The notes beneath the pieces are model-generated. The model was not told the origin of the DNA. It searched no databases and worked only from the letters and a program-made list of their open reading frames with translations. A stretch of 40,000 bases of DNA, taken from assembly GCF_009792235.1 (NCBI RefSeq), contig NZ_CP046973.1:1473062-1513061 (forward strand), read 5' to 3'. Below, piece by piece: positions 2,290-35,516 of this stretch (position 1 is its first letter; each line of letters begins with the position of its first letter). The translations under genes and the position numbers were made by a program. The DNA is from Microcystis aeruginosa FD4. GTDB taxonomy: Bacteria; Cyanobacteriota; Cyanobacteriia; Cyanobacteriales; Microcystaceae.

Positions 2290-3710
2290 TTGACATCCTC
2301 ACCGCCGTAAACGGACGGTGATTCCCAAACCTCACGATTTGGGTTTCTGCTTCTTTCCCTTGCGGGGTTCCGCACCTGCCTTAACAGATTTACTCTGTTC
2401 TGGTCTTATGGTCGCTCTACAGACTGACACCGCAAGTCCTGCGGCCAAAATGTTTTTACTGGCGTTAATATCTCGGTCATGGTGAGTCCCGCAGTCTGGA
2501 CAATCCCATTCTCGAATATTTAACGGCATTTTCTCAGCAATATACCCGCAATTACTACACCTTTTAGAACTGGGAAACCATCTATCTATTTCGATGTAAT
2601 TTCTCCCATACCAACGGCATTTATAGGCTAATTGTCGAGTTATTTCTCCCCAACTAACGTCAGATATTGCCTGAGATAATTTCGGGTTTTTGACCAGATT
2701 CTTGACGGCTAAATTCTCAACCACAATCGTTTGGTTTTCACGAACTAATTGAGTGGTTAGCTTGTGTAAATGGTCTTTTCTACTATCAGTAATTTGGGCG
2801 TGAATCTTGGCTACTTTGATTCTCGCTTTTTCCCGATTTTTTGACCCTTTCTGTTTTCTAGAAAGGCTTTTTGGGTCCTTTCGCAGTCTCCGATAATGCT
2901 TTTTAAAATGCTTGGGATTAGATACCTTGTCTCCATCGCTGGTAATCACAAGGCTACTAATTCCTAAGTCAATTCCGATGGCTTTATCGGTTGGGGGTAA
3001 GGGTTTAATTGTTGGGTCATCAAATCTTATTGAGATATGCCAACGTCCAGAAGGATGTAATCTGACTGTTACTGTGCTTGGTTCACAAGCTTCTGGTATT
3101 TGTCTTGACCATCGAATAGGTAAAGGTTCTGTGCATTTAGCTAAATAGATTTGTTTGTCTTTGAACTTAAAAGCAGATTTGGTAAATTCGGCACTTCCTC
3201 CTTGATGTTTTTTCTTAAAGTTAGGATACTTAGTACGACCAGCAAAGAAATTGGTAAAAGCTGTTTGTAGGTGTCTTAACCCTTGTTGCAAAGGTACACA
3301 GCTTACTTCGTTGAGAAAGTCTAATTCTTCTTGCTTTTTCCACTCGGTTAGCATTGAAGAGGTTTCAGTATATCCTACTCTTTCTTGCTTTTCGTACCAT
3401 GCTTGTGTTCTGAGATGGAGAGCTTTATTGTAAACCAATCTTACACAGCCCAAAGTGCGCCGCAATAGCGACTCTTGTTCGGGTGTGGGGTAAAATCGAA
3501 ACGAATAGGCTTTTTCCATGTCTCACATTTTAGCATATATTTGGTAAATGCGCTATAGCAAATAATGGGTTATTTAGGACGCTTTCAATTTTCAAACTCT
3601 TATCTGAACAGGGTTTCAGCGATGGATTGTCCTAAGCACCTTGGTCTTTGCTATAGTATTTAACGGTAAAGCCGTCGTAGAACGACGGGGTTTCAGACCC
3701 AAAATTTTCG
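2290..3710 (-). mobile_element. IS200/IS605-family tnpB-only element (IS1341 group), complete copy
   Basis: The right end at 2290 reads TTGACATCCTCACCGCCGTAAACGGACGGTG, i.e. ...GTCAA on the element strand plus a hairpin. The left end has the hairpin CCGTCGTAGAACGACGG at about 3672-3688 and terminates ...CCCAAAATTTTCGAT at 3710. A second copy of the same right end occurs at 39353. Confidence 0.8.
2332..3519 (-). CDS. tnpB: TnpB/OrfB RNA-guided endonuclease-like transposase accessory protein
   Basis: 395 aa. N-terminus YSFRFYPTPEQESLLRRTLGCVRLVYNKAL, RuvC-like GIDLG and VVENL motifs, zinc finger CSNCG...CPDCG and a DRDINASKNI tail. Confidence 0.92.
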   Translation of the reverse strand: MEKAYSFRFYPTPEQESLLRRTLGCVRLVYNKALHLRTQAWYEKQERVGYTETSSMLTEWKKQEELDFLNEVSCVPLQQGLRHLQTAFTNFFAGRTKYPNFKKKHQGGSAEFTKSAFKFKDKQIYLAKCTEPLPIRWSRQIPEACEPSTVTVRLHPSGRWHISIRFDDPTIKPLPPTDKAIGIDLGISSLVITSDGDKVSNPKHFKKHYRRLRKDPKSLSRKQKGSKNREKARIKVAKIHAQITDSRKDHLHKLTTQLVRENQTIVVENLAVKNLVKNPKLSQAISDVSWGEITRQLAYKCRWYGRNYIEIDRWFPSSKRCSNCGYIAEKMPLNIREWDCPDCGTHHDRDINASKNILAAGLAVSVCRATIRPEQSKSVKAGAEPRKGKKQKPKS

Positions 3711-3734
3711 ATGAAATTAAAAGTTCTATGATAG

Positions 3735-3826
3735 AACGTAGGTTGGGTTGAAGCATGAAACCCAACGCTCGCATAGTTTACGCTACCGCTAACCCATCCT
3801 ACAAATAATTGTGCCTATCTACTTAA
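3735..3826 (-). mobile_element. 92-bp hairpin-forming MITE, copy 1 of 3 (others at 15626-15717 and 20954-21045, opposite orientation)
   Basis: Sequence AACGTAGGTTGGGTTGAAGCATGAAACCCAAC...CCCATCCTACAAATAATTGTGCC. It has subterminal inverted GTAGG(A/T)TGGGTT arms and an inner GTTGGGTT/AACCCAAC stem. A 24-bp direct repeat flanks it at 3711-3734 and 3827-3850. Confidence 0.7.
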
Positions 3827-3932
3827 ATGAAATTAAAAGTTCTATGATAGGGGTAAGAGTTGTCAAATTGCTGGCAACTTAACCCCCAAAAATCCGATCA
3901 ATAAGTTAACCCTCATTACCCCGATTTTATCT

Positions 3933-4325
3933 ATGGAACCGATAACAGTGGCGACAATTGTTGCTTTGGTATTTCAGACTACTGTAGAAAAATTTACTGA
4001 AGCTGCTCTAGAAAAAATTAATACTTTGCGGCAAATTATCTGGAATAAACTTAAAGCTAATCCTAATGCTGAAAAAGCTTTACAAGCTGCTGAAAAAGGG
4101 TCAAAAACTGATCTAGAAAAAGTGGCAGATTATTTAAAGGTTGCCATGAATGATGAAGCAGATTTTGCCGAAAAAGTCAAGGGTTTAGCAACAGAAATTC
4201 AATCCTTGAAAATTCAGGATAATAGTAGTATGAACCAGGCTAATTCTGGAGGTCAAAATTTCCAGAATCAGGGGGAGGTTGGTGAAGTTTATCAAGCAGC
4301 AACTATAAACATCAATAAAACCTGA
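3933..4325 (+). CDS. 130-aa helical N-terminal domain, in frame with the downstream NB-ARC/TPR ORF and separated from it by a single TGA
   Basis: Same frame as 4479..7235. Hydrophobic N-terminal helix MEPITVATIVALVFQTTV, three predicted helices, and a Q/N/G-rich tail GGQNFQNQGEVGEVYQAATININ. Confidence 0.6.
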   Translation: MEPITVATIVALVFQTTVEKFTEAALEKINTLRQIIWNKLKANPNAEKALQAAEKGSKTDLEKVADYLKVAMNDEADFAEKVKGLATEIQSLKIQDNSSMNQANSGGQNFQNQGEVGEVYQAATININKT

Positions 4326-4478
4326 CTGGAGCCGCCTGTTAAGGAACAGGTTAAACAACATCCTCACAATTTATCTAATAGTAATATCCCTAAATTTGTT
4401 GGTAGGGATAAGGAATTAATTGACTTAAAAAATAAATTACAACAATCCCAAAAGCTTGCTATATCTACCTTAACGGGA

Positions 4479-7235
4479 ATGGGAGGCATAGGTAAAACCG
4501 AACTAGCCAGACAATTTGGCTGGCAACAATGGCGAGAAAAAGCCTATCCAGGGGGTATATGTTGGTTAAATGTGGCAGAGAGTGATGGCGGTTTTATCGG
4601 TACTTCTATTTTAGATTTTGCCCGAGTACATTTCAAATTAACTTTACCGGATGAGGGAGAATTAGACATAAAAATTCGTTATTGTTGGCAAAATTGGTTA
4701 GCGGGAAATGTCTTAATTATTTTTGATGATGTACGGGATTATCAGCAAATTAAGTATTATTTACCACCGCAAGAGGAGAAACGCTTTCAGGTTTTAATTA
4801 CCACTCGCAAGGAATATTTATCAGCGACAATTGCGACTTTTCGGGTAGAAGTTTTAAAAGAAGAAGATGCACTTGATTTATTGCGTTCCTACCTCGGAGA
4901 TAACAGAATTGACACACAAATCGAAGAAGCTAAATTATTGTGTCAGGATTTGGGTTATTTGCCCTTAGGGTTAGAATTGGTGGCAAGGTTGCTGGTACGA
5001 CGACAGGATTGGAAAATTAGCAAAATACGGCAGAAGTTAGCAGAAAACGGCTTAGAGGAGCAAATTTTAGAGAAAAATCCCAAGTTTCATGGGGAAATGA
5101 CAGCAGAAAGAGGGTTGAAAGCTGCCTTTAATCTCAGTTGGGAGGAGTTGAATAGCGAACCAGATGCCCAAATTTTGGCACTTTACCTCAGTTTATTCGC
5201 TCTTGCGCCCTTTTTCAAGGAGATGATTCTGGATTTATTTCCCGATGAGGATGGGGATACAGTAGAGGAATGGTTAACCGATAGCTTAGTTCACCTGAGC
5301 TTAGTTCAGGATAAGGGTGAGGGTTGGTATGAAATTCATCCCCTGTTGCGTCGCTATTTTCGGGATAAGTTAGAAGCATCACCCCACGCAGAACCAGCAA
5401 AGCGCCGCTATTGCGGTATTATGGCCAAAAAATCGGCAGAAATGCCACAGGATGTGACTGTAGAAATCGTTGAAGATTTTAAACCTTTCCTTCTCCATCT
5501 GCAAGCATCTGTCGGGGAATATCCAGAATATATCGCTGATGAGGATTTAGCTCGGTCCTATACGGGTTTAGCTCGTTATTATGAAGGACAAGGATTGTAT
5601 GCTATTGCTGAACCTTACTATCAAAATTGTTTAACCGCAACTCGAACCCGTTTAGGAGACAATCATCCCGATGTGGCAAGTTCCCTCAACAATTTAGCAC
5701 TATTGTACGAATCCCAAGGCAGATACACAGAAGCGGAACCTCTCTATCTAGAAGCATTAGATTTGTATAAACGACTCTTAGGAGACAATCATCCCGATGT
5801 GGCAACTTCCCTCAACAATTTAGCAGGATTGTACGATTCCCAAGGCAGATACACAGAAGCGGAACCTCTCTATCTAGAAGCATTAGATTTGTATAAACGA
5901 CTCTTAGGAGACAATCATCCCGATGTGGCAACTTCCCTCAACAATTTAGCAGGATTGTACGATTCCCAAGGCAGATACCCAGAAGCAGAGCCTCTCCTTC
6001 TAGAAGCATTAGATTTGAGAAAACGACTCTTAGGAGACAATCATCCCGATGTGGCAACTTCCCTCAACAATTTAGCAGGATTGTACGATTCCCAAGGCAG
6101 ATACACAGAAGCGGAACCTCTCTATCTAGAAGCATTAGATTTGAGAAAACGACTCTTAGGAGACAATCATCCCGATGTGGCAACTTCCCTCAACAATTTA
6201 GCAGGATTGTACGATTCCCAAGGCAGATACCCAGAAGCAGAGCCTCTCCTTCTAGAAGCATTAGATTTGAGAAAACGACTCTTAGGAGACAATCATCCCG
6301 ATGTGGCAACTTCCCTCAACAATTTAGCAGGATTGTACGATTCCCAAGGCAGATACACAGAAGCGGAACCTCTCTATCTAGAAGCATTAGATTTGATAAA
6401 ACGACTCTTAGGAGACAATCATCCCGATGTGGCAACTTCCCTCAACAATTTAGCAGGATTGTACGATTCCCAAGGCAGATACCCAGAAGCAGAGCCTCTC
6501 CTTCTAGAAGCATTAGATTTGAGAAAACGACTCTTAGGAGACAATCATCCCGATGTCGCACTTTCCCTCAACAATTTAGCAGGATTGTACAAATCCCAAG
6601 GCAGATACACAGAAGCGGAACCTCTCTATCTAGAAGCATTAGATTTGATAAAACGACTCTTAGGAGACAATCATCCCCTTGTGGCAACTTCCCTCAACAA
6701 TTTAGCAGGATTGTACGATTCCCAAGGCAGATACACAGAAGCGGAACCTCTCTATCTAGAAGCATTAGATTTGAGAAAACGACTCTTAGGAGACAATCAT
6801 CCCGATGTCGCACTTTCCCTCAACAATTTAGCAGTATTGTACCGTTCCCAAGGCAGATACACAGAAGCGGAACCTCTCTATCTAGAAGCATTAGATTTGA
6901 GAAAACGACTCTTAGGAGACAATCATCCCGATGTGGCACTTTCCCTCAACAATTTAGCATATTTGTACCAATACCAAGGCAGATACACAGAAGCGGAACC
7001 TCTCTATCTAGAAGCATTAGATTTGAGAAAACGACTCTTAGGAGACAATCATCCCGATGTGGCAACTTCCCTCAACAATTTAGCAGGATTGTACGATTCC
7101 CAAGGCAGATACCCAGAAGCGGAACCTCTCTATCTAGAAGCTTTAGCAATTGCCGAGCAAGCTTTAGGGGAGAATCATCCTAATACAATAATATTTCGGG
7201 AAAATTATGCTATCTGTCTTCGTCGTGGGGGATAA
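4479..7235 (+). CDS. STAND NTPase (NB-ARC) fused to a 13-unit TPR array; NLR-like. The frame is open from 4326, and the listed ATG lies inside the Walker A motif
   Basis: Walker A GMGGIGKTELA and Walker B LIIFDDV. GYLPLGLELVA resembles the NB-ARC GLPLA motif. These are followed by 42-aa TPR units (LGDNHPDVATSLNNLAGLYDSQGRYTEAEPLYLEALDLRKRL). Confidence 0.85.
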   Translation: MGGIGKTELARQFGWQQWREKAYPGGICWLNVAESDGGFIGTSILDFARVHFKLTLPDEGELDIKIRYCWQNWLAGNVLIIFDDVRDYQQIKYYLPPQEEKRFQVLITTRKEYLSATIATFRVEVLKEEDALDLLRSYLGDNRIDTQIEEAKLLCQDLGYLPLGLELVARLLVRRQDWKISKIRQKLAENGLEEQILEKNPKFHGEMTAERGLKAAFNLSWEELNSEPDAQILALYLSLFALAPFFKEMILDLFPDEDGDTVEEWLTDSLVHLSLVQDKGEGWYEIHPLLRRYFRDKLEASPHAEPAKRRYCGIMAKKSAEMPQDVTVEIVEDFKPFLLHLQASVGEYPEYIADEDLARSYTGLARYYEGQGLYAIAEPYYQNCLTATRTRLGDNHPDVASSLNNLALLYESQGRYTEAEPLYLEALDLYKRLLGDNHPDVATSLNNLAGLYDSQGRYTEAEPLYLEALDLYKRLLGDNHPDVATSLNNLAGLYDSQGRYPEAEPLLLEALDLRKRLLGDNHPDVATSLNNLAGLYDSQGRYTEAEPLYLEALDLRKRLLGDNHPDVATSLNNLAGLYDSQGRYPEAEPLLLEALDLRKRLLGDNHPDVATSLNNLAGLYDSQGRYTEAEPLYLEALDLIKRLLGDNHPDVATSLNNLAGLYDSQGRYPEAEPLLLEALDLRKRLLGDNHPDVALSLNNLAGLYKSQGRYTEAEPLYLEALDLIKRLLGDNHPLVATSLNNLAGLYDSQGRYTEAEPLYLEALDLRKRLLGDNHPDVALSLNNLAVLYRSQGRYTEAEPLYLEALDLRKRLLGDNHPDVALSLNNLAYLYQYQGRYTEAEPLYLEALDLRKRLLGDNHPDVATSLNNLAGLYDSQGRYPEAEPLYLEALAIAEQALGENHPNTIIFRENYAICLRRGG
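5652..7163 (+). repeat. Twelve near-identical 126-bp tandem repeats encoding the TPR units, with a partial 252-bp higher-order periodicity
   Basis: TTAGGAGACAATCATCCC recurs at 5652 + 126k for k = 0 to 11. A diverged cap unit starts at 7164. Confidence 0.95.
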
Positions 7236-7253
7236 TTAAACATAAAACTAGCT

Positions 7254-7700
7254 ATGAAAATCTACTTAGATACTAGCGCACTCCATCGTATTTTTGATGA
7301 TCGCTCTCAGGTACGCATTGCTCTTGAAGCTTTAGCAGTACAATCTATTCTATTGCTAATTCAAGAACGTACAGTCGAACTAATTATATCAGACGCACTT
7401 GCCTATGAAATCTCTCGCAATCCTTATCCAGAAAATAAAATGACTGCTTTTAGCATTTTACGACTTGCCAACTCTTATCAAGTATTGACAACTGAAACGT
7501 TAAATCGTGGACAACAACTAGAAACAAATGATAACATCGGTAAACTAGATGCTTTACATCTAGCCTGTGCCGAATCTCAACAGGTTGATTTCTTTATTAC
7601 TTGCGATGATCGCCTCATCAAACGCTATAAAGGTATAATGCGTATATGTAATCCTGTCGAATTTATTTTACTAATGACTGAATCAGGAGATAAATCATGA
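7254..7700 (+). CDS. PIN-domain nuclease (toxin-like)
   Basis: 148 aa. Acidic PIN signature positions: IYLDTSAL, LDALHLA, ITCDDRL. Starts 18 bp after the NLR-like stop. Confidence 0.75.
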   Translation: MKIYLDTSALHRIFDDRSQVRIALEALAVQSILLLIQERTVELIISDALAYEISRNPYPENKMTAFSILRLANSYQVLTTETLNRGQQLETNDNIGKLDALHLACAESQQVDFFITCDDRLIKRYKGIMRICNPVEFILLMTESGDKS

Positions 7701-7924
7701 AAATTGACTTCCCTAGTTTACCTCGTAACACTGAATTGCATCGTGAAGCTATTGAAATTCTAAACGAACGAATGGGTATCGCCAAAGCTGCCATCTTTAT
7801 GAGTGATGCCTTTTGGAAACCAACTGACTATCTAGAAATTAAACATAATCTGTTTGCTGATGAAACTGTTGCTAGTCTTTATGAAAAAGTGGTACTTTGG
7901 CGTGAGCAAACTCAAAAACCCTAA
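7697..7924 (+). CDS. 75-aa partner of the PIN protein (putative antitoxin, family unrecognised)
   Basis: ATGA start/stop overlap with 7254..7700 indicates translational coupling. No motif recognised. Confidence 0.5.
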   Translation: MKIDFPSLPRNTELHREAIEILNERMGIAKAAIFMSDAFWKPTDYLEIKHNLFADETVASLYEKVVLWREQTQKP

Positions 7925-7936
7925 TATTACAGTAAT

Positions 7937-8380
7937 ATGTAGCAACTTTCCTCAACAATTTAGCAGAATTATACTCATCTCAAGGAAGGTACATATAGCG
8001 GAAGTCATAAGTCAGAACCCCTCTATTTACAAGCTTTAGAATTGTATAAACGACTCTTAGGAGACAATCATCCCCTTGTGGCACAATCTCTCAACAATTT
8101 AGCATACTTGTACCAATCCCAAGGCAGATACCCAGAAGCAGAACCTCTCTATCTAGAAGCATTAGATTTGATAAAACGACTCTTAGGAGACAATCATCCC
8201 TCTGTGGCACAATCCCTCAACAATTTAGCAGAATTGTACAAATCCCAAGGCAGATACACAGAAGCAGAACCTCTCTATCTAGAAGCTTTAGCAATTGCCG
8301 AGCAAGCTTTAGGGGAGAATCATCCTAATACAATAATATTTCGGGAAAATTATGCTATCTGTCTTCGTCGTGGGGGATAG
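7937..8380 (+). pseudogene. Displaced or decayed copy of the NLR-like TPR C-terminus (remnant 2)
   Basis: TPR-unit homology runs from about 7937 with an in-frame TAG and a 12-bp insertion. The distal part is intact (ORF 8042..8380). The last 113 bp (8267-8379) match 7122-7234 exactly by eye. Confidence 0.75.
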
Positions 8381-8467
8381 CGTCTTAGCTGTGATTGGTG
8401 TGATTATGTCAAGTTTTTAGGAAATTAAACCAGTTTATTCTTAATCAAACTTAAACGGAGAAAATTA

Positions 8468-8710
8468 ATGACAACCAACTTATTAAATAATGCTATTACC
8501 ATAGATAACGAAATTCAACATGGTAAACCAATATTAACAGGAACCCGAATCCCGATCGCCATTGTTATTGGTTCCCTGGCAGGAGGAATGAGCTATGAAG
8601 AAGTCATGGAGGAATATGGAGTTACTCAAGAGCAAATTCTTGCTTCTTTAGCATATTTTTCTGAACTTTTAAATAATGAAATCATTTATCCAATGGAGAA
8701 AACCAGTTGA
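8468..8710 (+). CDS. DUF433-family small protein (antitoxin-like)
   Basis: 80 aa. The GKPILTGTRIPIAIVIGSLAGGMSYEEVMEEY pattern is typical of DUF433. Overlaps the next gene (TTGA). Confidence 0.7.
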   Translation: MTTNLLNNAITIDNEIQHGKPILTGTRIPIAIVIGSLAGGMSYEEVMEEYGVTQEQILASLAYFSELLNNEIIYPMEKTS

Positions 8711-9075
8711 AAATTCGCTTTTTAATTGATCAAGACTGCCCCTTAAGTTTAAGCAACTTGCTAAATTCTAAAGGTTATGACGCTATTCATGTAAAAACCT
8801 CTGGACTAAGTGGCACAAAAGACCCTGAGCTATTTCGATTTGCTCAACGAGAACAGCGAATTATTATTAGCCGTGATTTGGGATGGGCTAATATCAAAAA
8901 TTATCCTCCCAATACCCATTGTGGTCTGATTATTTTACGATTTCCTTTTGAGGCGATAGCGGTAGAAATTAGACAGGTTTTAGAAAATTTTATCAATACC
9001 GTAGATATAGAAGAAATTATTGGCTCAACGGTAATTGTGGATAAAAATAAGTTTAGGATCAGAAAATCTGGTTGA
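8707..9075 (+). CDS. DUF5615 / Mut7-C PIN-like protein (toxin-like partner of DUF433)
   Basis: 122 aa. FLIDQDCP...GYDAIHV...RIIISRDLG...GLIILR pattern. TTG start overlaps the upstream stop. Confidence 0.65.
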   Translation: MKIRFLIDQDCPLSLSNLLNSKGYDAIHVKTSGLSGTKDPELFRFAQREQRIIISRDLGWANIKNYPPNTHCGLIILRFPFEAIAVEIRQVLENFINTVDIEEIIGSTVIVDKNKFRIRKSG

Positions 9076-9211
9076 CAAATTAATAGTGTTCCTAATATAA
9101 ATTAAACAGCGATCGCCACTTTTAAACCTGATAGAAAAACAGCAATTCTTTTACAGTTCATTAAATTGTAATTGCTTTTTTCCTACCCAATAAACCCAAC
9201 AGAATAAACCC

Positions 9212-9469
9212 ATGAATACAGCAACTAAAACCATCAAAGTCTATAACGAAATTATTGAACTAATCGCAGGGGGAACCACTCCCCAATCGGTGATTAACTT
9301 TCATCTTTCCGATACCGCTCAAAATCGCCTAGAAGACCTAATTTATAACGCTAAAAATAATGAACTTACCCAAGAGGAAAAACAGGAACTCGATGCTTAT
9401 TTAATGCTAGAACATATTATGACCCTAGCAAAAGCAAAAGCTCACCAATATCTCAATGGAGCTAACTAA
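9212..9469 (+). CDS. 85-aa small protein coupled to the HNH gene
   Basis: Overlaps the HNH ORF by 14 bp. Helical and acidic. No family recognised. Confidence 0.5.
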   Translation: MNTATKTIKVYNEIIELIAGGTTPQSVINFHLSDTAQNRLEDLIYNAKNNELTQEEKQELDAYLMLEHIMTLAKAKAHQYLNGAN

Positions 9470-9910
9470 AATGGCTCGACCTTACATTAGTGCAGAATTG
9501 CGAAAATTAGTTGCTGAACGTGCCGATTTTCTCTGTGAATATTGCTTAATTTCTGCTTCTGATAGGGTATCTGGCTATCAGGTGGATTATATCATTAGTG
9601 TTAAACATGGGGGAGCAACTTCGGCTGATAATTTGTGCTACGCCTGTATTTTTTGCAATTTACAAAAAGGTACAGATTTAGGCTCAATTAATTGGGAAAC
9701 TGGAGAACTTGTCCGTTTTTTTACCCGCGTCGAGACTTGTGGAAAGAACATTTTCAACTTAAAGAAGCTTTTATCCAACCCATTACTGATATTGGGAACG
9801 TGACAGCTAGGATTTTAGATTTCAATAATAAAGAACGCTTACAAGAGCGACAATTATTAATAGAAATTGCTAAATATCCACCTGTTTCTGCAAAACAAGG
9901 ACTTCTTTAA
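9456..9910 (+). pseudogene. HNH-family endonuclease, frame broken at a T7 run
   Basis: CEYC...DYIISVKHGG...NLCYACIFCNLQKG is an HNH zinc-finger scaffold. ORF 9456..9803 and ORF 9692..9910 join into one protein (ELVRFF|YPRRDLWKEHF) by a -1 shift at TTTTTTT 9716-9722. Confidence 0.65.
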
Positions 9911-9921
9911 ATTTATTTCAT

Positions 9922-10331
9922 AACCTCTTTCTCTACAAGCATTAGAATTGAAAAAACAACTCTTAGGAGACAATCATCCCGATGTGGCAGCTTCCCTCAA
10001 CAATTTAGCATACTTGTACTACTCCCAAGGCAGATACCCAGAAGCAGAACCTCTCTATCTAGAAGCGATTAATATTGCTACCCAAGTATTAGGGGAAAAT
10101 CATCCCCATACCCAAACCTTTTATCAGAATTATCTGAGGATGTTATCGCAATTACCCGAAGCAGAATTAAGACAACGGTTTCCTCTTCCTCATCCGTTGA
10201 ACCCAAAACCCCCTCATCCCCGAAAACAGCTATTAGGAAGATTGATACAAGGGTTTCTGATATTGTTAATTTTACCCTTTTATAGCCTCTGGTTAGTCTT
10301 GCGGTGGTTGCTGAGGAGACTGGGTTTCTAA
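9922..10331 (+). pseudogene. Third, more diverged TPR C-terminal remnant with an alternative cap and a hydrophobic tail
   Basis: Homology to the repeat unit begins at about 9922 (AACCTCTTTCTCTACAAGCATTAGAATTGAAAAAACAACTCTTAGGAGAC). ORF 9948..10331 has no N-terminal domain and ends LILLILPFYSLWLVLRWLLRRLGF. Confidence 0.6.
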
Positions 10332-10370
10332 GGAAACTTCAATGGGGAGTATTTGATGCTTGAAAAGAGG

Positions 10371-12985
10371 GTCTGCATACGCACGGATTTTCCATTATGA
10401 ATATAATATCATGTCAAGGGGCCTTTGTCAAGAGAAAATTTTTTCAAATCAGGATTTAGTAAAACCTAGTAACCCACCACCATCGACTGTGGTTGGTGTG
10501 ATGAACTGTGATTAGGAACCTAGTTAAGAGTGGATTAGAGATGAAGATTGATTGAATGAACCAATCATAGTCAATCACATAATCACATCAATCATAGTTA
10601 AGACCATGGGAAAATAGCGTCTGCATACGCACGGATTTTCCATTATGAATATAATGTCATGTCAAGAGGCTTTTGTCAAGAGAAAATTTTTTCAAATCAG
10701 GATTTAGTAAAACCTAGTAACCCACCACCATCGACTGTGGTTGATGTAATCATCTGATGGACTGTGATTAGGTATCTAGTTGAGAGTTTCTGAAAAGTAA
10801 ATGACTAACCCTAGTGGATTAGAGATGAAGATTGATTGAATGAACCAATCATAGTCAATCACATAATCACATCAATCATAGTTAAGACCGTTGGAAAATA
10901 GCGTCTGCATACGCACGGATTTTCCATTATGAATATAATGTCATGTCAAGAGGCTTTTGTCAAGAGAAAATTTTTTCAAATCAGGATTTAGTAAAACCTA
11001 GTAACCCACCACCATCGACTGTGGTTGGTGTGATGGACTGTGATTAGGAAGCTAGTTAAGAGTGGATTAGAGATGAAGATTGATTGAATGAACCAATCAT
11101 AGTCAATCACATAATCACATCAATCATAGTTAAGACCGTTGGAAAATAGCGTCTGCATACGCACGGATTTTCCATTATGAATATAATGTCATGTCAAGAG
11201 GCTTTTGTCAAGAGAAAATTTTTTCAAATCAGGATTTAGTAAAACCTAGTAACCCACCACCATCGACTGTGGTTGATGTAATCATCTGATGGACTGTGAT
11301 TAGGTATCTAGTTGAGAGTTTCTGAAAAGTAAATGACTAACCCTAGTGGATTAGAGATGAAGATTGATTGAATGAACCAATCATAGTCAATCACATAATC
11401 ACATCAATCATAGTTAAGACCGTTGGAAAATAGCGTCTGCATACGCACGGATTTTCCATTATGAATATAATGTCATGTCAAGAGGCTTTTGTCAAGAGAA
11501 AATTTAACAACATTCAGAAAAACGTAGGGTGCGTTAGACGGCCAAAATTTCTGCTTTAACTTCAAGCTAACAATCCGTCCTAACGCACCACCATCGACAG
11601 TGGTTGATGTAATCATCTGATGGACTGTGATAAGTAAAACCTAGGGTGCGGAATGTGGGTTCAAGCTAACAATCCCTCGTAACCCACCACCATCGACAGT
11701 GATTGGAATGATTGAATGATGAACTGTGATTAGGAACCTAGTTAAGAGTGGATTAGAGATGAAGATTGATTGAATGAACCAATCATAGTCAATCACATAA
11801 TCACATCAATCATAGTTAAGACCATGGGAAAATAGCGTCTGCATACGCACGGATTTTCCATTATGAATATAATGTCATGTCAAGGGGCTTTTGTCAAGAG
11901 AAAATTTTTTCAAATCAGGATTTAGTAAAACGTAGTAACGCAGCACCTATCATCGACTGTGGTTGATGTAATCATCTGATGGACTGTGATTAGGTATCTA
12001 GTTGAGAGTTTCTGAAAAGTAAATGACTAACCCTAGTGGATTAGAGATGAAGATTGATTGAATGAACCAATCATAGTCAATCACATAATCACATCAATCA
12101 TAGTTAAGACCATGGGAAAATAGCGTCTGCATACGCACGGATTTTCCATTATGAATATAATGTCATGTCAAGAGGCTTTTGTCAAGAGAAAATTTTTTCA
12201 AATCAGGATTTAGTAAAACCTAGTAACCCACCACCATCGACTGTGGTTGGTGTGATGGACTGTGATTAGGAAGCTAGTTAAGAGTGGATTAGAGATGAAG
12301 ATTGATTGAATGAACCAATCATAGTCAATCCAATAATCACATCAATCATAGTTAAGACCATGGGAAAATAGCGTCTGCATACGCACGGATTTTCCATTAT
12401 GAATATAATGTCATGTCAAGAGGCTTTTGTCAAGAGAAAATTTTTTCAAATCAGGATTTAGTAAAACCTAGTAACCCACCACCATCGACTGTGGTTGATG
12501 TAATCATCTGATGGACTGTGATTAGGTATCTAGTTGAGAGTTTCTGAAAAGTAAATGACTAACCCTAGTGGATTAGAGATGAAGATTGATTGAATGAACC
12601 AATCATAGTCAATCCAATAATCACATCAATCATAGTTAAGACCATGGGAAAATAGCGTCTGCATACGCACGGATTTTCCATTATGAATATAATGTCATGT
12701 CAAGAGGCTTTTGTCAAGAGAAAATTTTTTCAAATCAGGATTTAGTAAAACCTAGTAACCCACCACCATCGACAGTGATTGGAATGATTGAATGATGAAC
12801 TGTGATTAGGAACCTAGTTAAGAGTGGATTAGAGATGAAGATTGATTGAATGAACCAATCATAGTCAATCACATAATCACATCAATCATAGTTAAGACCA
12901 TGGGAAAATAGCGTCTGCATACGCACGGATTTTCCATTATGAATATAATATCATGTCAAGCCGCCTTTGTCAAGTAGGTTTCTAG
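10371..12985. repeat. ORF-free tandem array: nine full units (248, 284, 248, 284, 402, 288, 248, 284, 256 bp) plus a truncated tenth head
   Basis: GTCTGCATACGCACGG starts units at 10371, 10619, 10903, 11151, 11435, 11837, 12125, 12373, 12657 and 12913. There is no ORF of 60 aa or more on either strand across 2.6 kb. Confidence 0.95.
11528..11589 (-). terminator. Candidate intrinsic terminator (minus strand) inside the expanded array unit
   Basis: Arms GGTGCGTTAGACGG and CCGTCCTAACGCACC give a 14-bp stem with one bulge. On the minus strand the stem is followed by CTACGTTTTTC. The loop is long (about 34 nt), so this is weak. Confidence 0.3.
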
Positions 12986-13006
12986 TCAAAAGGGACTAAG
13001 TTGGAA

Positions 13007-13231
13007 TTACAGCAGACGAATAAATTCTTCTTGTGTCAGTTCAGCATCGCGTAAAATTTTTAAGAGTAATCCTTTCCCGACAGTTTTCCCCCGATGAACA
13101 GGTACGGTGACAACTCTTCCATCTTCATGTTTTAAGCGCAGATGACTTCCTTTTTGTCGGATAGATTGAAACCCTATTCTCGTTAAAGCTTTGATAACTT
13201 CATCACCTGTTAATATCGGTAATTTTGGCAT
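13007..13231 (-). CDS. hicA: HicA mRNA-interferase toxin
   Basis: 74 aa. LTGDEVIKALTRIGFQSIRQKGSHLRLKHEDGRVVTVPVH is the HicA/YcfA signature. Confidence 0.9.
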   Translation of the reverse strand: MPKLPILTGDEVIKALTRIGFQSIRQKGSHLRLKHEDGRVVTVPVHRGKTVGKGLLLKILRDAELTQEEFIRLL

Positions 13232-13452
13232 CAGATAGACACCTTTTCAATTCCAACAAACTCCGACACATCTTCAGGATTGTCATCTTGCAAGCAAAGT
13301 TCAATCACTTCCCTGATATTCTTCATCAATTCATCAATCGTTTCCCCTTGACTGTAACAACCCCGAAGTTGAGGAACTTCCCCAACATAATATCCATCCT
13401 CATCTCGTTCAATGACAACATAAAACTCTCTTTGATGGTTCATGGTTCTCAA
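13231..13452 (-). CDS. hicB: HicB-like antitoxin (N-terminal UPF0150 domain only)
   Basis: 73 aa. FYVVIERDEDGYYVGEVPQLRGCYSQGETIDELMKNIREVIELCL. One-base overlap with hicA. Confidence 0.85.
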   Translation of the reverse strand: MRTMNHQREFYVVIERDEDGYYVGEVPQLRGCYSQGETIDELMKNIREVIELCLQDDNPEDVSEFVGIEKVSI

Positions 13453-35028: not shown

Positions 35029-35516
35029 CTTTTTGGCTGTGATCGGTAAACAGTAAACTGAAAACTCAAATCTGATCACTGAATCTCCCCTCTTGCCTCT
35101 GAGAAAAAAAAATGCTATGATGAAAACAAATCGGGCTTCTACGTTGGTGACTGCCTTTCAAGTTTTTTGATCTATGCTTGATTGTGATAAGGGAGCAAAT
35201 AACCAATTCGTGTGGTAGTAAACCGAGCTTGTACTCGGAAACAGAAACGCGTAATATAAGTTCCCACCTGGTTAACCCAGGTCATAAACTTAGGTAAAAC
35301 GGCGTAGCGGTCTTTTCAAGTTTTTCGAGCATATATAGGCCAAATTCTGGTGAGATTCCCTGTACTTCCTTAGTTTTGCCCTCTTGGTTGGTCAAAAAAG
35401 CCAGTATCTGTATTTTTTTCTAGATTAAAGACTGCGGTTTTCGGTAACGCTTGTCACCGCTAAATTGTGACAATCCGGACTACACTAGGGAAAAATTTAT
35501 GAATTATTGTTAAGCA

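Follow-up and report, generated by a model that had tools for sequence, protein, structure and literature searches.

In transformable bacteria, homology-facilitated illegitimate recombination integrates foreign DNA by combining one homologous anchor with an illegitimate join of the DNA adjoining it; we know of no demonstration of the process in Microcystis. Displacement of C-termini that leaves behind orphan arrays has been described for polymorphic toxin loci such as rhs and cdiA (for example, Koskiniemi et al., 2014; PMC3967940). Among the Bell/BASS amyloid-signalling NLRs of multicellular bacteria, whose hosts include Microcystis, the TPR or WD repeats are highly conserved internally, and repeat reshuffling is known to diversify the sensor domain of fungal NLRs of the HET-E/NWD type (both in Dyrka et al., 2020, bioRxiv 10.1101/2020.01.06.895854, the latter as summarised there). 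In Microcystis PCC 7806, a ParE/ParD-like module lies 3′ of the orthocaspase gene MaOC1 with 152-bp direct repeats around it (Klemencic et al., 2021; PMC7935541). Here we describe a locus of Microcystis aeruginosa FD4 at which the 3′ end of an NLR-like gene has quite probably been swapped at least twice for the 3′ ends of related NLR genes, as judged from comparison of sequences. A limited literature search found no paper describing this arrangement, and the interpretation offered in an initial annotation of the locus is partly supported.

An NLR-like gene followed by truncated TPR tails

The window, a 40,000-nucleotide stretch of the FD4 chromosome, contains an NB-ARC/TPR gene followed by two 5′-truncated TPR tails (remnants 2 and 3) with small genes between them:

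3933–4325 (+): candidate Bell-like effector ORF of 130 aa, the N-terminal ORF, from its position and motif comparison with relatives
4326–7235 (+): 'live' NB-ARC/TPR NLR-like gene with 12–13 TPR units of 42 aa (126 bp)
5595–7106 (+): TPR array, twelve 126-bp units 93–96% identical to each other
7107–7235 (+): live type-I tip, cap ...EALAIAEQALGENHPNTIIFRENYAICLRRGG, stop codon TAA
7122–7234 (+): 113-bp tract, copy 1, in the live tip
7254–7700 (+): block 1 cargo, PIN gene (E 2.7e-13), beginning 18 bp past the NLR stop codon
7697–7924 (+): block 1 cargo, 75-aa partner, overlapping the PIN gene by 4 bp
7925–7936 (+): block 1 right junction; Gloeothece verrucosa homology to 7935, remnant-2 TPR from 7937
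7937–8380 (+): remnant 2, 5′-truncated TPR tail of a partial unit, two units, a type-I cap and TAG
8267–8379 (+): 113-bp tract, copy 2, in remnant 2
8381–8467 (+): native 3′ flank of the displaced remnant-2 tip, including a 28-nt motif
8468–9910 (+): block 2 cargo as one unit (DUF433, DUF5615, 85-aa ORF, HNH pseudogene)
8468–8710 (+): DUF433 gene (E 5.7e-18)
8707–9075 (+): DUF5615 gene (E 5.4e-19)
9212–9469 (+): 85-aa ORF, partner of the HNH pseudogene
9456–9910 (+): HNH pseudogene (HNH E 1.6e-9)
9911–9921 (+): block 2 right junction; TrmE-locus homology to 9917, TPR from 9922
9922–10331 (+): remnant 3, 5′-truncated tail with a type-III cap and a hydrophobic, tail-anchor-like helix extension
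10332–13000 (no strand assigned): repeat-rich native 3′ flank ('post3') with about 9 copies of 248/284-bp MITE-like units

The first ATG of the NLR-like gene, at 4479, coincides with the P-loop, and the 51 codons that separate it from an upstream TGA, among which ATG, GTG and TTG are all absent, form a conserved pre-P-loop segment. This TGA closes the 130-aa ORF and is in frame with the NB-ARC ORF. The 130-aa ORF is helical, with a hydrophobic N-terminus and the C-terminal end ...GEVGEVYQAATININKT; it has no matches in Pfam, NCBIfam or PADLOC. It shares its position with the 152-aa and 130-aa ORFs of L029 (G. verrucosa) and L032; each of these ends in a motif that is matched at the N-terminus of its own NLR. 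The TPR array shows a higher-order period of 252 bp between 5973 and 6602.

The order of live tip, module, dead tip, modules and dead tip, as first annotated, is real. So is the identical repetition of the gene's tail: 7122–7234 and 8267–8379 match at 113/113 bases, and the identity stops at the third base of the stop codon (TAA in the live gene, TAG in remnant 2). The adjoining 126 bp on the left contain 11 mismatches (91% identity), a rate at which 113 successive matches would have a chance of about 2e-5. The two caps are likewise nearly equal in further assemblies that carry this stack (0–1 nt apart in L027, L002 and L003, and 4 nt in L001), so the identity is not special to the window; the equal caps could alternatively reflect gene conversion or duplication. 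The live tip is followed by the PIN flank, unlike remnant 2 and the live tips of L013 and the second, 'TrmE' locus, which share the native post-tip flank (TAG CGTCTTAGCTGTGATT...). The 28-nt motif GTCTTAGCTGTGATTGGTGTGATTATGT at 8382–8409 recurs behind nearly all tips of the two paralogous loci.

In remnant 2, the TPR homology sets in at nt 77 of the 126-nt unit. Its first partial unit is decayed from about 7937 and carries a TAG, as annotated, with a net insertion of 13 nt (12+1 in the alignment) instead of the 12 reported, which puts this unit out of frame with the remainder; remnant 2 contains no ATG. Remnant 3 begins at nt 17 of the unit and its ORF extends to 10331. The initial description of it holds, in that its cap differs from type I and its C-terminal helix is hydrophobic (19-residue Kyte-Doolittle mean 2.18).

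Native contexts of the three blocks

Block 1 consists of the type-I tip, 18 bp, the PIN gene and the 75-aa gene. Positions 5681–7935 of the window are collinear with 2428–4682 of a full-length NLR locus of G. verrucosa (L029; 81% over 2256 bp), where an 18-bp spacer likewise separates the stop codon from the PIN gene; at the amino-acid level, the PIN protein is 88% and its partner 79% identical. The NB-ARC parts of these two genes share 30% of residues, and set against the collinear 3′ part this marks the window gene as a mosaic. The block occurs in its native state in G. verrucosa and one metagenome cyanobacterium. The PIN and 75-aa pair also lies behind NLR genes in L032 and L030. Its position directly 3′ of NLR stop codons in three other cyanobacterial lineages suggests that it may be a conserved accessory of NLRs and not the hitch-hiking addiction module first proposed. 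The same right junction is found in L002–L005, L027 and L028.

Positions 8379–9679 are 98.4% identical to 9912–11212 of L018, L019 and L022 at the TrmE locus, where the match opens precisely with the stop codon of a 974-aa, full-length NLR, and 8089–9917 is 94.5% identical to L021 and L023. By these matches, block 2 is evidently the native 3′ neighbourhood of a paralogous NLR at this second Microcystis locus. The initial annotation had counted three two-gene modules; the gene families are present, but DUF433/DUF5615 and 85-aa/HNH are evidently one block that entered together and not two cassettes, and the HNH gene, which has lost 1 bp from a T run and reads DY in place of the catalytic DH, is a pseudogene in the window. 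The TrmE-locus homology stops 7 bp past the HNH stop codon at a junction also present in L026 and L027; no clean microhomology with an L021-type donor was seen there.

In the repeat-rich flank of remnant 3, every MITE-like unit contains the inverted complement of the 28-nt post-tip motif. The aspartokinase-linked gene of L006 ends, across a 100-N scaffold gap, in the same tip and flank. To judge from this correspondence, the aspartokinase-linked gene originally ended in remnant 3 with its flank. The extended type-III tip is very probably the live tip in L006, and L007, L010, L012 and L014 have the type-III core as theirs, so that remnant tips are indeed live elsewhere. With native contexts found for all three blocks, the proposal that a tip travels with the genes directly 3′ of it stands, and comparative data agree with older tips lying further downstream.

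Polymorphism across assemblies

Comparison across strains, as the initial annotation had suggested, found, in at least 12 other assemblies and at two to three loci, stacks of a similar kind as well as chimeric remnants and alleles free of insertions; complete chromosomes as well as independent metagenomes contain the stack. The window stack itself is found in the independent assembly L027 (a M. viridis MAG) and in metagenome contigs L001–L005, L026 and L028, which rules out an assembly artefact. At the TrmE locus, L020, L021, L023, L024 and L025 have a live NLR, a 73-aa and ParE-like pair, a 145-aa remnant and DUF433; L018, L019 and L022 are without the insertion. An antitoxin/PIN module in L007 lies between 394-bp direct repeats (last unit, cap and flank; 94% identity), and in its uninserted counterpart, L012, the corresponding tip is live. 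In L010, two remnant types are fused into one chimeric remnant and one module is deleted, and junction 2 is combined with three different downstream tips (in the window and L027, in L001, and in L034/L035). Modules and remnants have been reshuffled as well, by recombination among remnants and among MITE-like repeats, which makes the array as much a scrambled island as an ordered stack.

Proposed serial replacement of the 3′ end and its alternatives

The stacked old tails with their attached genes suggest that the 3′ end was replaced repeatedly through the repeat units. On the upstream side of each event, the near-identical 126-bp TPR units would provide homology, the array at 5595–7106 acting as the left anchor; on the downstream side, a non-homologous join would form within the resident TPR array. 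The incoming piece would then comprise a few TPR units, the tip and the genes 3′ of the donor gene, and the resident tip would be displaced downstream and left as a 5′-truncated fragment. The original gene would have ended in remnant 3 and the repeat-rich flank; the TrmE-locus paralogue block (remnant 2, DUF433, DUF5615, 85-aa ORF, HNH) would have arrived next, followed by the type-I-tip NLR block (cap, PIN, 75-aa ORF). The sequences show the block structure, the native contexts, the junctions and the differences among strains; the mechanism, one-sided homology with an illegitimate join, and the order of events are inferred. The direction is based on parsimony and on synteny with aspartokinase, and the left crossover points are not mappable because the TPR units are homogenised. 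Once flanked by TPR on both sides, a block could be copied, deleted or chimerised by homologous recombination, in exchanges between strains and between paralogues. Toxin-antitoxin-like cargo is perhaps over-represented, speculatively because addictive genes resist loop-out between direct repeats.

If selection were added to the same mechanism, the remnants would be kept as a stock of alternative tips for sensing or localisation; recombination would carry them into the live gene so as to alter specificity or membrane anchoring, and each cassette would be stabilised by addiction modules. At least six tip types, with a transmembrane-like tail (Kyte-Doolittle 2.2–2.4) or without one, are polymorphic at one locus; some remnant types are live in other strains, the chimeras show that remnants recombine, and many remnants keep open reading frames across strains. 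Nevertheless, we regard such adaptive switching as unlikely. The initial annotation had the sensor tip being exchanged, but the newest event in the window delivered the same type-I cap allele, so none was gained there and switching stays unproven; moreover, a stop and a frameshift interrupt the first unit of remnant 2, another frameshift lies in the L012 remnant, the HNH gene is decaying and remnant-free loci are common (L009, L014, L015, L018, L019 and L022).

Alternatively, a complete NLR with its downstream module could have been inserted upstream, destroying the resident 5′ part, in which case the remnants would be leftovers of former occupants and not the displaced tips of one gene. At the TrmE locus, the NLR of L024 is a TIR-NB-ARC and that of L019 is Bell-type, with DNA homology limited to the TPR array and downstream flank; since the 5′ part differs by strain in this way, some events there may be 5′-part or whole-gene replacements that left the old tail behind. 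Alleles of the N-terminal ORF also vary between orthologues of the window gene. At the window locus, however, the NB-ARC part is 88–96% identical to its orthologues in nine Microcystis loci, which differ in their 3′ ends, it keeps its aspartokinase neighbour across strains, and the locus to which block 1 is related has an NB-ARC with only 30% identity. It follows that the change took place in the 3′ part, and we rate this alternative as improbable for the window.

Very improbable, in our estimate, is that the fragments are independent small TPR genes, such as membrane-anchored TPR adaptors, in a toxin-antitoxin island. Protein annotations exist for the 127-aa remnant-3 ORF in 28 member sequences, and 44/44 relatives of its tail are short. 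At the TrmE locus, the 145-aa fragment, with an ATG and 36 N-terminal residues that are not TPR, is intact in at least four strains, an observation that counts in part against the initial interpretation. The window fragments, by contrast, all lack an ATG and both begin mid-unit, right past another gene's stop codon; the same tips and flanks terminate full-length NLRs at other loci, and some short 'partial' hits lie at scaffold gaps. We give hardly any credence to autonomous two-gene cassettes inserting site-specifically in TPR DNA or beside NLR stop codons, with the TPR fragments as target duplications: modules do start near stop codons (18 bp past the tip), junctions do lie 7–12 bp past module stop codons, MITE-like repeats precede several modules and the 28-nt motif follows nearly every tip, but the starts of the remnants fall at four to five phases of the 126-nt unit (77, 17, 35, 88 and about 85–91, each junction position being constant per module across strains), which marks insertion as not site-specific, the duplicated segments vary in length and run to hundreds of bp, neither common terminal sequences nor a recombinase gene was found in 7–10.4 kb, and block 2 is a plain native neighbourhood of a paralogue.

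Comparison with known systems

Read as serial replacement of the 3′ end, the locus resembles rhs and cdiA, the likeness drawn initially, in the form of C-terminal displacement. In both, a full-length gene is followed by 5′-truncated fragments, with newer tips proximal; each fragment joins a piece of the conserved region to an alternative C-terminus and the gene(s) travelling with it; and the fragments lack initiation signals and are able to recombine with the main gene. Where rhs/cdiA have toxin domains as tips and immunity genes as partners, this locus has TPR caps, some with a hydrophobic tail and some without, and pairs of the PIN, DUF5615 and HNH types, and in place of a fixed demarcation motif there are junctions at varied repeat phases. 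The homology is, moreover, a tandem repeat array, so that unequal exchange changes the unit number too.

With the Bell/BASS NLRs the locus shares the NB-ARC and TPR architecture, units 93–96% identical and a small ORF at the Bell-effector position, and the relatives L029 and L032 have the paired C-terminal/N-terminal motif. The Microcystis NLR ORF differs in lacking the N-terminal motif and a canonical start and in continuing the reading frame of the upstream ORF beyond a conserved TGA, and the 3′ stack of remnants and modules is absent from the described system. As in the fungal HET-E/NWD genes, high internal repeat identity would be both a result and a promoter of unequal recombination; in the fungal case units are shuffled within one gene, whereas at the present locus recombination would also bring in foreign 3′ ends together with the genes behind them, leaving tails as pseudogenes. 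The MaOC1 module resembles the present ones as a toxin-antitoxin(-like) module directly 3′ of a cell-death-related(-like) Microcystis gene, between direct repeats. Its repeats are non-coding, whereas those in the window are copies of the upstream gene's own 3′ end, and the 16-nt inverted repeat of the MaOC1-module repeats was not found in the window. Finally, one homologous anchor and an illegitimate join are what the locus would have in common with homology-facilitated illegitimate recombination; the difference is that the join here falls within the downstream copy of a repeated anchor, and the old tip is thereby preserved.

A stack of truncated TPR tails behind an NLR-like gene

The window carries an NLR-like gene (hereinafter the main gene) recognized by profile matches to NB-ARC (E=1.1 × 10–14) and TPR_12 (E=2 × 10–222), with TPR units of 126 bp each that are 93–96% identical to one another. 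Behind this full-length gene lie two 5′-truncated pieces, remnants 2 and 3, which keep some of the conserved region together with the C-terminus (the tip), and between the tails lie three small gene pairs, or modules:

4479 (first ATG) to 7235 (stop): main NLR-like gene, NB-ARC and 12–13 TPR_10/TPR_12 units
7254–7924: pair 1, PIN gene and 75-aa ORF, 4-bp overlap
7937–8380: remnant 2, TPR homology with a TAG and a net 13-nt insertion in the first partial unit
Pair 2: DUF433 and DUF5615 genes, 4-bp overlap
Pair 3: 85-aa ORF and HNH gene (HNH at 9456–9910)
9922–10331: remnant 3, TPR homology with a different cap and a hydrophobic tail

The initial annotation had described a 113-bp identical tract and displaced TPR tails with gene pairs between them, and both descriptions were confirmed: 7122–7234 and 8267–8379 agree at 113 of 113 bases and part only at the last base of the stop codon (TAA vs TAG). 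Since the 126 bp upstream of the tract show just 91% identity, a run of this length is unexpected from background (~2 × 10–5). Gene conversion as the source of the identity is weakened by the finding that both caps belong to a single low-diversity allele class in all stack-bearing strains. A Microcystis viridis MAG (L027) and several metagenome contigs carry the same stack. In profile searches the tips match TPR families only, and remnants here and at related loci start at nucleotides 77, 17, 35, 88, and ~85–91 of the 126-nt unit, each start being fixed for its module across strains.

All three pairs consist of two small adjoining or overlapping genes, one of them with a known toxin-type domain, in the format of type II toxin-antitoxin (TA) modules. 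The 75-aa and 85-aa partners matched no family and no solved structure; solved-structure searches with these and the PIN protein, PADLOC, and a promoter and terminator scan all gave nothing useful, and Rfam at its gathering threshold placed no family near the stack of tails and modules. The HNH gene, whose status in the initial annotation needs correction, is a pseudogene: it has lost 1 bp from a T7 run, which shifts the frame, and its catalytic DH is changed to DY (loss of the His). At the paralogous locus, its copies are damaged in other ways or truncated at the 3′ end. No recombinase gene occurs in the 7–10.4 kb interval, the sole transposase-like gene being an upstream TnpB; no shared module ends were found, and the junction phases vary.

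The main gene and its upstream region

Within the TPR array, 5973–6602 shows a 252-bp higher-order period in which RYPEAEPLLL.. and RYTEAEPLYL.. units alternate, indicating recent duplication of two-unit blocks; identical minus-strand ORFs at 5915, 6167, and 6419 mirror this period. Upstream, a 130-aa ORF with a hydrophobic N-terminus and no match to any profile occupies the position of the Bell effector. It shares a frame with the NB-ARC ORF, from which it is separated by a lone TGA (4323–4325). The 51 codons after this TGA form a conserved pre-P-loop segment (..IPKFVGRDKELIDLK..) devoid of ATG, GTG, and TTG (4323–4478), and a 6-bp hairpin (CCTGTTaaggAACAGG) lies 9 nt past the TGA. The same arrangement is seen in the relatives' loci L007, L009–L015, and L017, with the TGA kept in 11 loci despite two unrelated C-terminal alleles of the upstream ORF (..TININKT* and ..FIGGNF*), and dS is 0.06 in the pre-P-loop segment vs 0.21 in NB-ARC. 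Readthrough or recoding, non-canonical reinitiation, and a shared defect are all possible explanations of the conserved TGA.

The TnpB-like gene (IS200/IS605 family, 395 aa, 2332–3519, minus strand) lies between the aspartokinase gene and the NLR operon. As the aspartokinase-NLR interval is only ~100 bp in L011 and L015, and neither L006 nor L013 yielded a homologue of the TnpB-like gene, the latter is a strain-specific insertion.

The blocks match the 3′ ends of other NLR genes

Comparison with relatives divides the stack into three blocks. Block 1 comprises the live tip, the PIN gene, and the 75-aa gene. Its counterpart in Gloeothece verrucosa PCC 7822 (L029) consists of a 152-aa ORF, a 965-aa NB-ARC/TPR gene, an 18-bp spacer as in the window, and genes for a PIN protein (88% identical to that of the window) and a 75-aa protein (79% identical). 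Positions 5681–7935 are collinear with this locus (81% over 2256 bp), and the homology stops 11 bp past the stop codon of the 75-aa gene, exactly at the remnant-2 junction. The NB-ARC domains of the two genes are identical at only 30% of residues, and the window gene is therefore a mosaic.

The pair itself, with the toxin-like gene first, belongs to a PIN148-family pair (PIN148 and a ~74-aa protein) that was NLR-linked in three of the four other cyanobacteria sampled. It lies 3′ of Bell/BASS-type NLR genes at 7254–7924 in the window, 4001–4671 in Gloeothece, 5001–5665 in L032 (a metagenome cyanobacterium), and 5001–5672 in L030 (Lyngbya). The L032 pair follows the NLR directly with an ATGA overlap, the Lyngbya pair is two genes removed from it, and that of Limnofasciculus (L033) is solitary. 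Because of its recurrent position right after NLR stop codons, the pair may be a true and conserved accessory of Bell/BASS-type NLRs, and we flag the PIN and 75-aa proteins as possible partners of this kind.

Block 2 runs from remnant 2 through the HNH pseudogene. Its exact DUF433 protein, present in 858 blocks of the collection, is very common in Microcystis, and in closed genomes it is found at another locus, between DUF3782 genes and trmE. At this second, paralogous NLR locus (the trmE locus), a full-length NB-ARC/TPR gene (974 aa) stops 89 bp before DUF433, which is followed by DUF5615, the 85-aa ORF, and HNH. Window positions 8379–9679 are 98.4% identical to this stretch, the match starting exactly at the NLR stop codon; thus, remnant 2 and both downstream pairs form one block, the 3′ end of a paralogous NLR with its native neighborhood. 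The trmE-locus homology ends at 9917, 7 bp past the HNH stop, and remnant 3 picks up TPR homology at 9922. Considered as microhomology at the block-2 junction, an ACCTCTT match with L021 fails to reproduce the product sequence, and we make no claim from it.

Block 3 consists of remnant 3 and its repeat-rich flank. Both have their match where the NLR gene linked to aspartokinase ends in L006; there the tail is parted from the rest of the gene by a 100-N scaffold gap only. The orthologous gene of L007, L010, L012, and L014 has the type-III core of the remnant-3 tip as its live tip. When the unique tail of remnant 3 was searched against 5.8 billion proteins, all 44 matches were short, with no full-length protein among them. 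This result proved misleading, as full-length genes end in the same tip type at the locus level; scaffold gaps adjoin some of the short matches.

A tip and its immediately downstream genes are accordingly inherited jointly: block 1 in L029 and L032, block 2 at the trmE locus, and block 3 in L006. A reading in which the conserved linkage joins a module to the fragment downstream of it, in place of a tip to its downstream module, was rejected: where blocks 1 and 2 occur in their native setting, both linkages prove to be inherited, and the one from module to downstream fragment is just a fossil junction. The displacement reading of the initial annotation is supported for the architecture and the unit of transfer; its count of cassettes needs correction, pairs 2 and 3 sharing one block with remnant 2.

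Repeats and a post-tip motif downstream

Several further elements lie at or beyond the tails:

8382–8409: 28-nt motif (GTCTTAGCTGTGATTGGTGTGATTATGT), directly after the remnant-2 stop codon
10360–13000: about nine 248/284-bp repeat units, 77–99% identical, all of which hold a short ORF on the minus strand (MIDYDWFIQSIFISNPLLT..)
10577–12898: inverted copies of the 28-nt motif
13007–13452, minus strand: HicA/HicB-like pair (74 and 73 aa) belonging to this island
35130–35317: 6S RNA (Rfam RF00013, 82.8 bits)

The 13-nt core (CTTARCTGTGATT) of the motif is found within ~10 nt of the stop codons of most tips, live or dead, at both paralogous loci, and the reverse complement of the motif occurs once per repeat unit in about nine downstream units (ten matches vs 0.08 expected by chance). 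The motif may represent a terminator, a 3′ UTR element, or a MITE end, or it may supply a short homology arm on the right-hand side when tips are exchanged. Relatives of the 248/284-bp repeats precede several TA modules in other strains and are involved in island rearrangements. The HicA/HicB-like pair is 96–98% conserved in L007, L010, and L015.

Variation among Microcystis loci

Stacks of this kind are general in Microcystis. Nine orthologous loci fetched for comparison carry 0, 1, or 2 downstream TPR remnants, interleaved with other small pairs (79 aa + PIN141; 73 aa + PIN137; Phd + ParE/RelE; HicAB; 69 aa + ParE). At least six types of tip can be told apart, and a hydrophobic tail is present in some of these types and absent from others. 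A scan of metagenomes returned only two loci. The trmE locus is likewise polymorphic, an extra tip with a 73-aa/ParE-like pair and a 145-aa remnant being present in five assemblies and absent from three. L010 has a chimeric remnant built from two remnant types, the intervening module being gone, and the window junction numbered 2 was found with three different downstream tips. In L007 one module is enclosed by a 394-bp direct repeat whose copies, 94% identical, comprise the last unit, the cap, and ~100 bp of flank, and in L012 the tip corresponding to this repeat is live and the module does not occur at that position. Judged from these sequence configurations, the remnants probably recombine with the main gene or with one another.

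The direct repeat in L007 raises Campbell-type integration of a circle, which is possible for that locus; it is unneeded for the window, where the homology ends exactly at the stop codon.

As a separate observation, the trmE locus has a TIR N-terminus fused to NB-ARC in some strains (L024/L025, 6215–8938) and a Bell-type two-ORF gene in others (L019, 6532–9911). DNA homology between these NLRs is confined to the TPR array and the downstream flank, which indicates that 5′ gene ends have been swapped too.

Proposed serial replacement of 3′ ends

Serial 3′-end replacement is the simplest account of the stack. The blocks, their junctions, and the polymorphisms among strains are directly seen in the sequences, from which we infer the recombination pathway and the order of events. 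A homologous crossover at some point of the TPR array, coupled with a non-homologous join farther downstream within the resident array, would bring in a donor tip with its downstream genes, and the old tip would stay behind as a truncated fragment. Once a block has TPR sequence on both sides, ordinary homologous recombination could move, delete, or recombine it, and the MITE-like repeats of the island might serve as further substrates. One possibility for the dominance of TA-like cargo is that addictive genes resist loop-out between direct repeats; another is that the PIN pair serves these NLRs as a true accessory. The finding suggests a reason for the build-up of TA-like pairs downstream of such genes in Microcystis.

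Bacterial NLR-like proteins are regarded as sensors that act in phage defense and regulated cell death, and little is known of the ways in which their sensor ends diversify. The locus and its relatives offer a concrete route, with whole 3′ ends and their downstream genes exchanged via the repeat array and earlier ends kept as a record. They also provide a natural allele series (soluble and hydrophobic-tailed tips, 0–2 remnants, chimeras) for testing the roles of the cap and tail anchor. An adaptive 'sensor tip exchange', as the initial annotation had it, is unproven. It is also conceivable, if rather unlikely, that NLR TPR arrays act as portable homology arms moving tip and module cassettes between paralogues, strains, and even genera, with retained tips as a silent reservoir for switching C-termini by recombination (e.g., soluble vs membrane-anchored, with different terminal repeats) and TA-like cargo both exploiting the vehicle and guarding cassettes from loop-out; NLR genes would then have their own equivalent of silent-cassette variation or of the orphan arrays of polymorphic toxins. 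Should the stacks be no more than recombination scars, most of the short 'TPR proteins' annotated in Microcystis would be pseudogene tails.

Comparison with known systems

Unlike site-specific cassettes borne by integrons, IS elements, or MITEs, the modules show no shared ends and have no recombinase gene beside them in the 7–10.4 kb interval. A TA module between direct repeats has been reported behind a Microcystis orthocaspase (PMC7935541); the window does not contain the 16-nt inverted repeat that Klemencic et al. described. NB-ARC/TPR NLRs with highly internally conserved repeats have been described for cyanobacteria including Microcystis (bioRxiv 10.1101/2020.01.06.895854). Like the Bell/BASS NLR systems, the window gene combines an NB-ARC NTPase with TPR repeats of high internal identity; unlike them, its NLR ORF lacks the N-terminal amyloid motif, and the paired motif is not present as two separate ORFs, whereas the effector/NLR motif pair is visible in the relatives L029 and L032. 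In the literature searched, whose coverage falls short of all journals, we found no description of NLR 3′ stacks. A close parallel is the C-terminal displacement of rhs/cdiA (PMC3967940). The window differs from those systems on two defining points, in having TPR tips with PIN, DUF433/DUF5615, and HNH genes in place of polymorphic toxin-domain tips and cognate immunity genes, and in lacking a fixed demarcation motif between conserved and variable parts, the remnant starts being variable. It resembles the rhs/cdiA orphan arrays in its full-length gene followed by 5′-truncated fragments and in the co-inheritance of each tip with its downstream genes, and follows the same logic.
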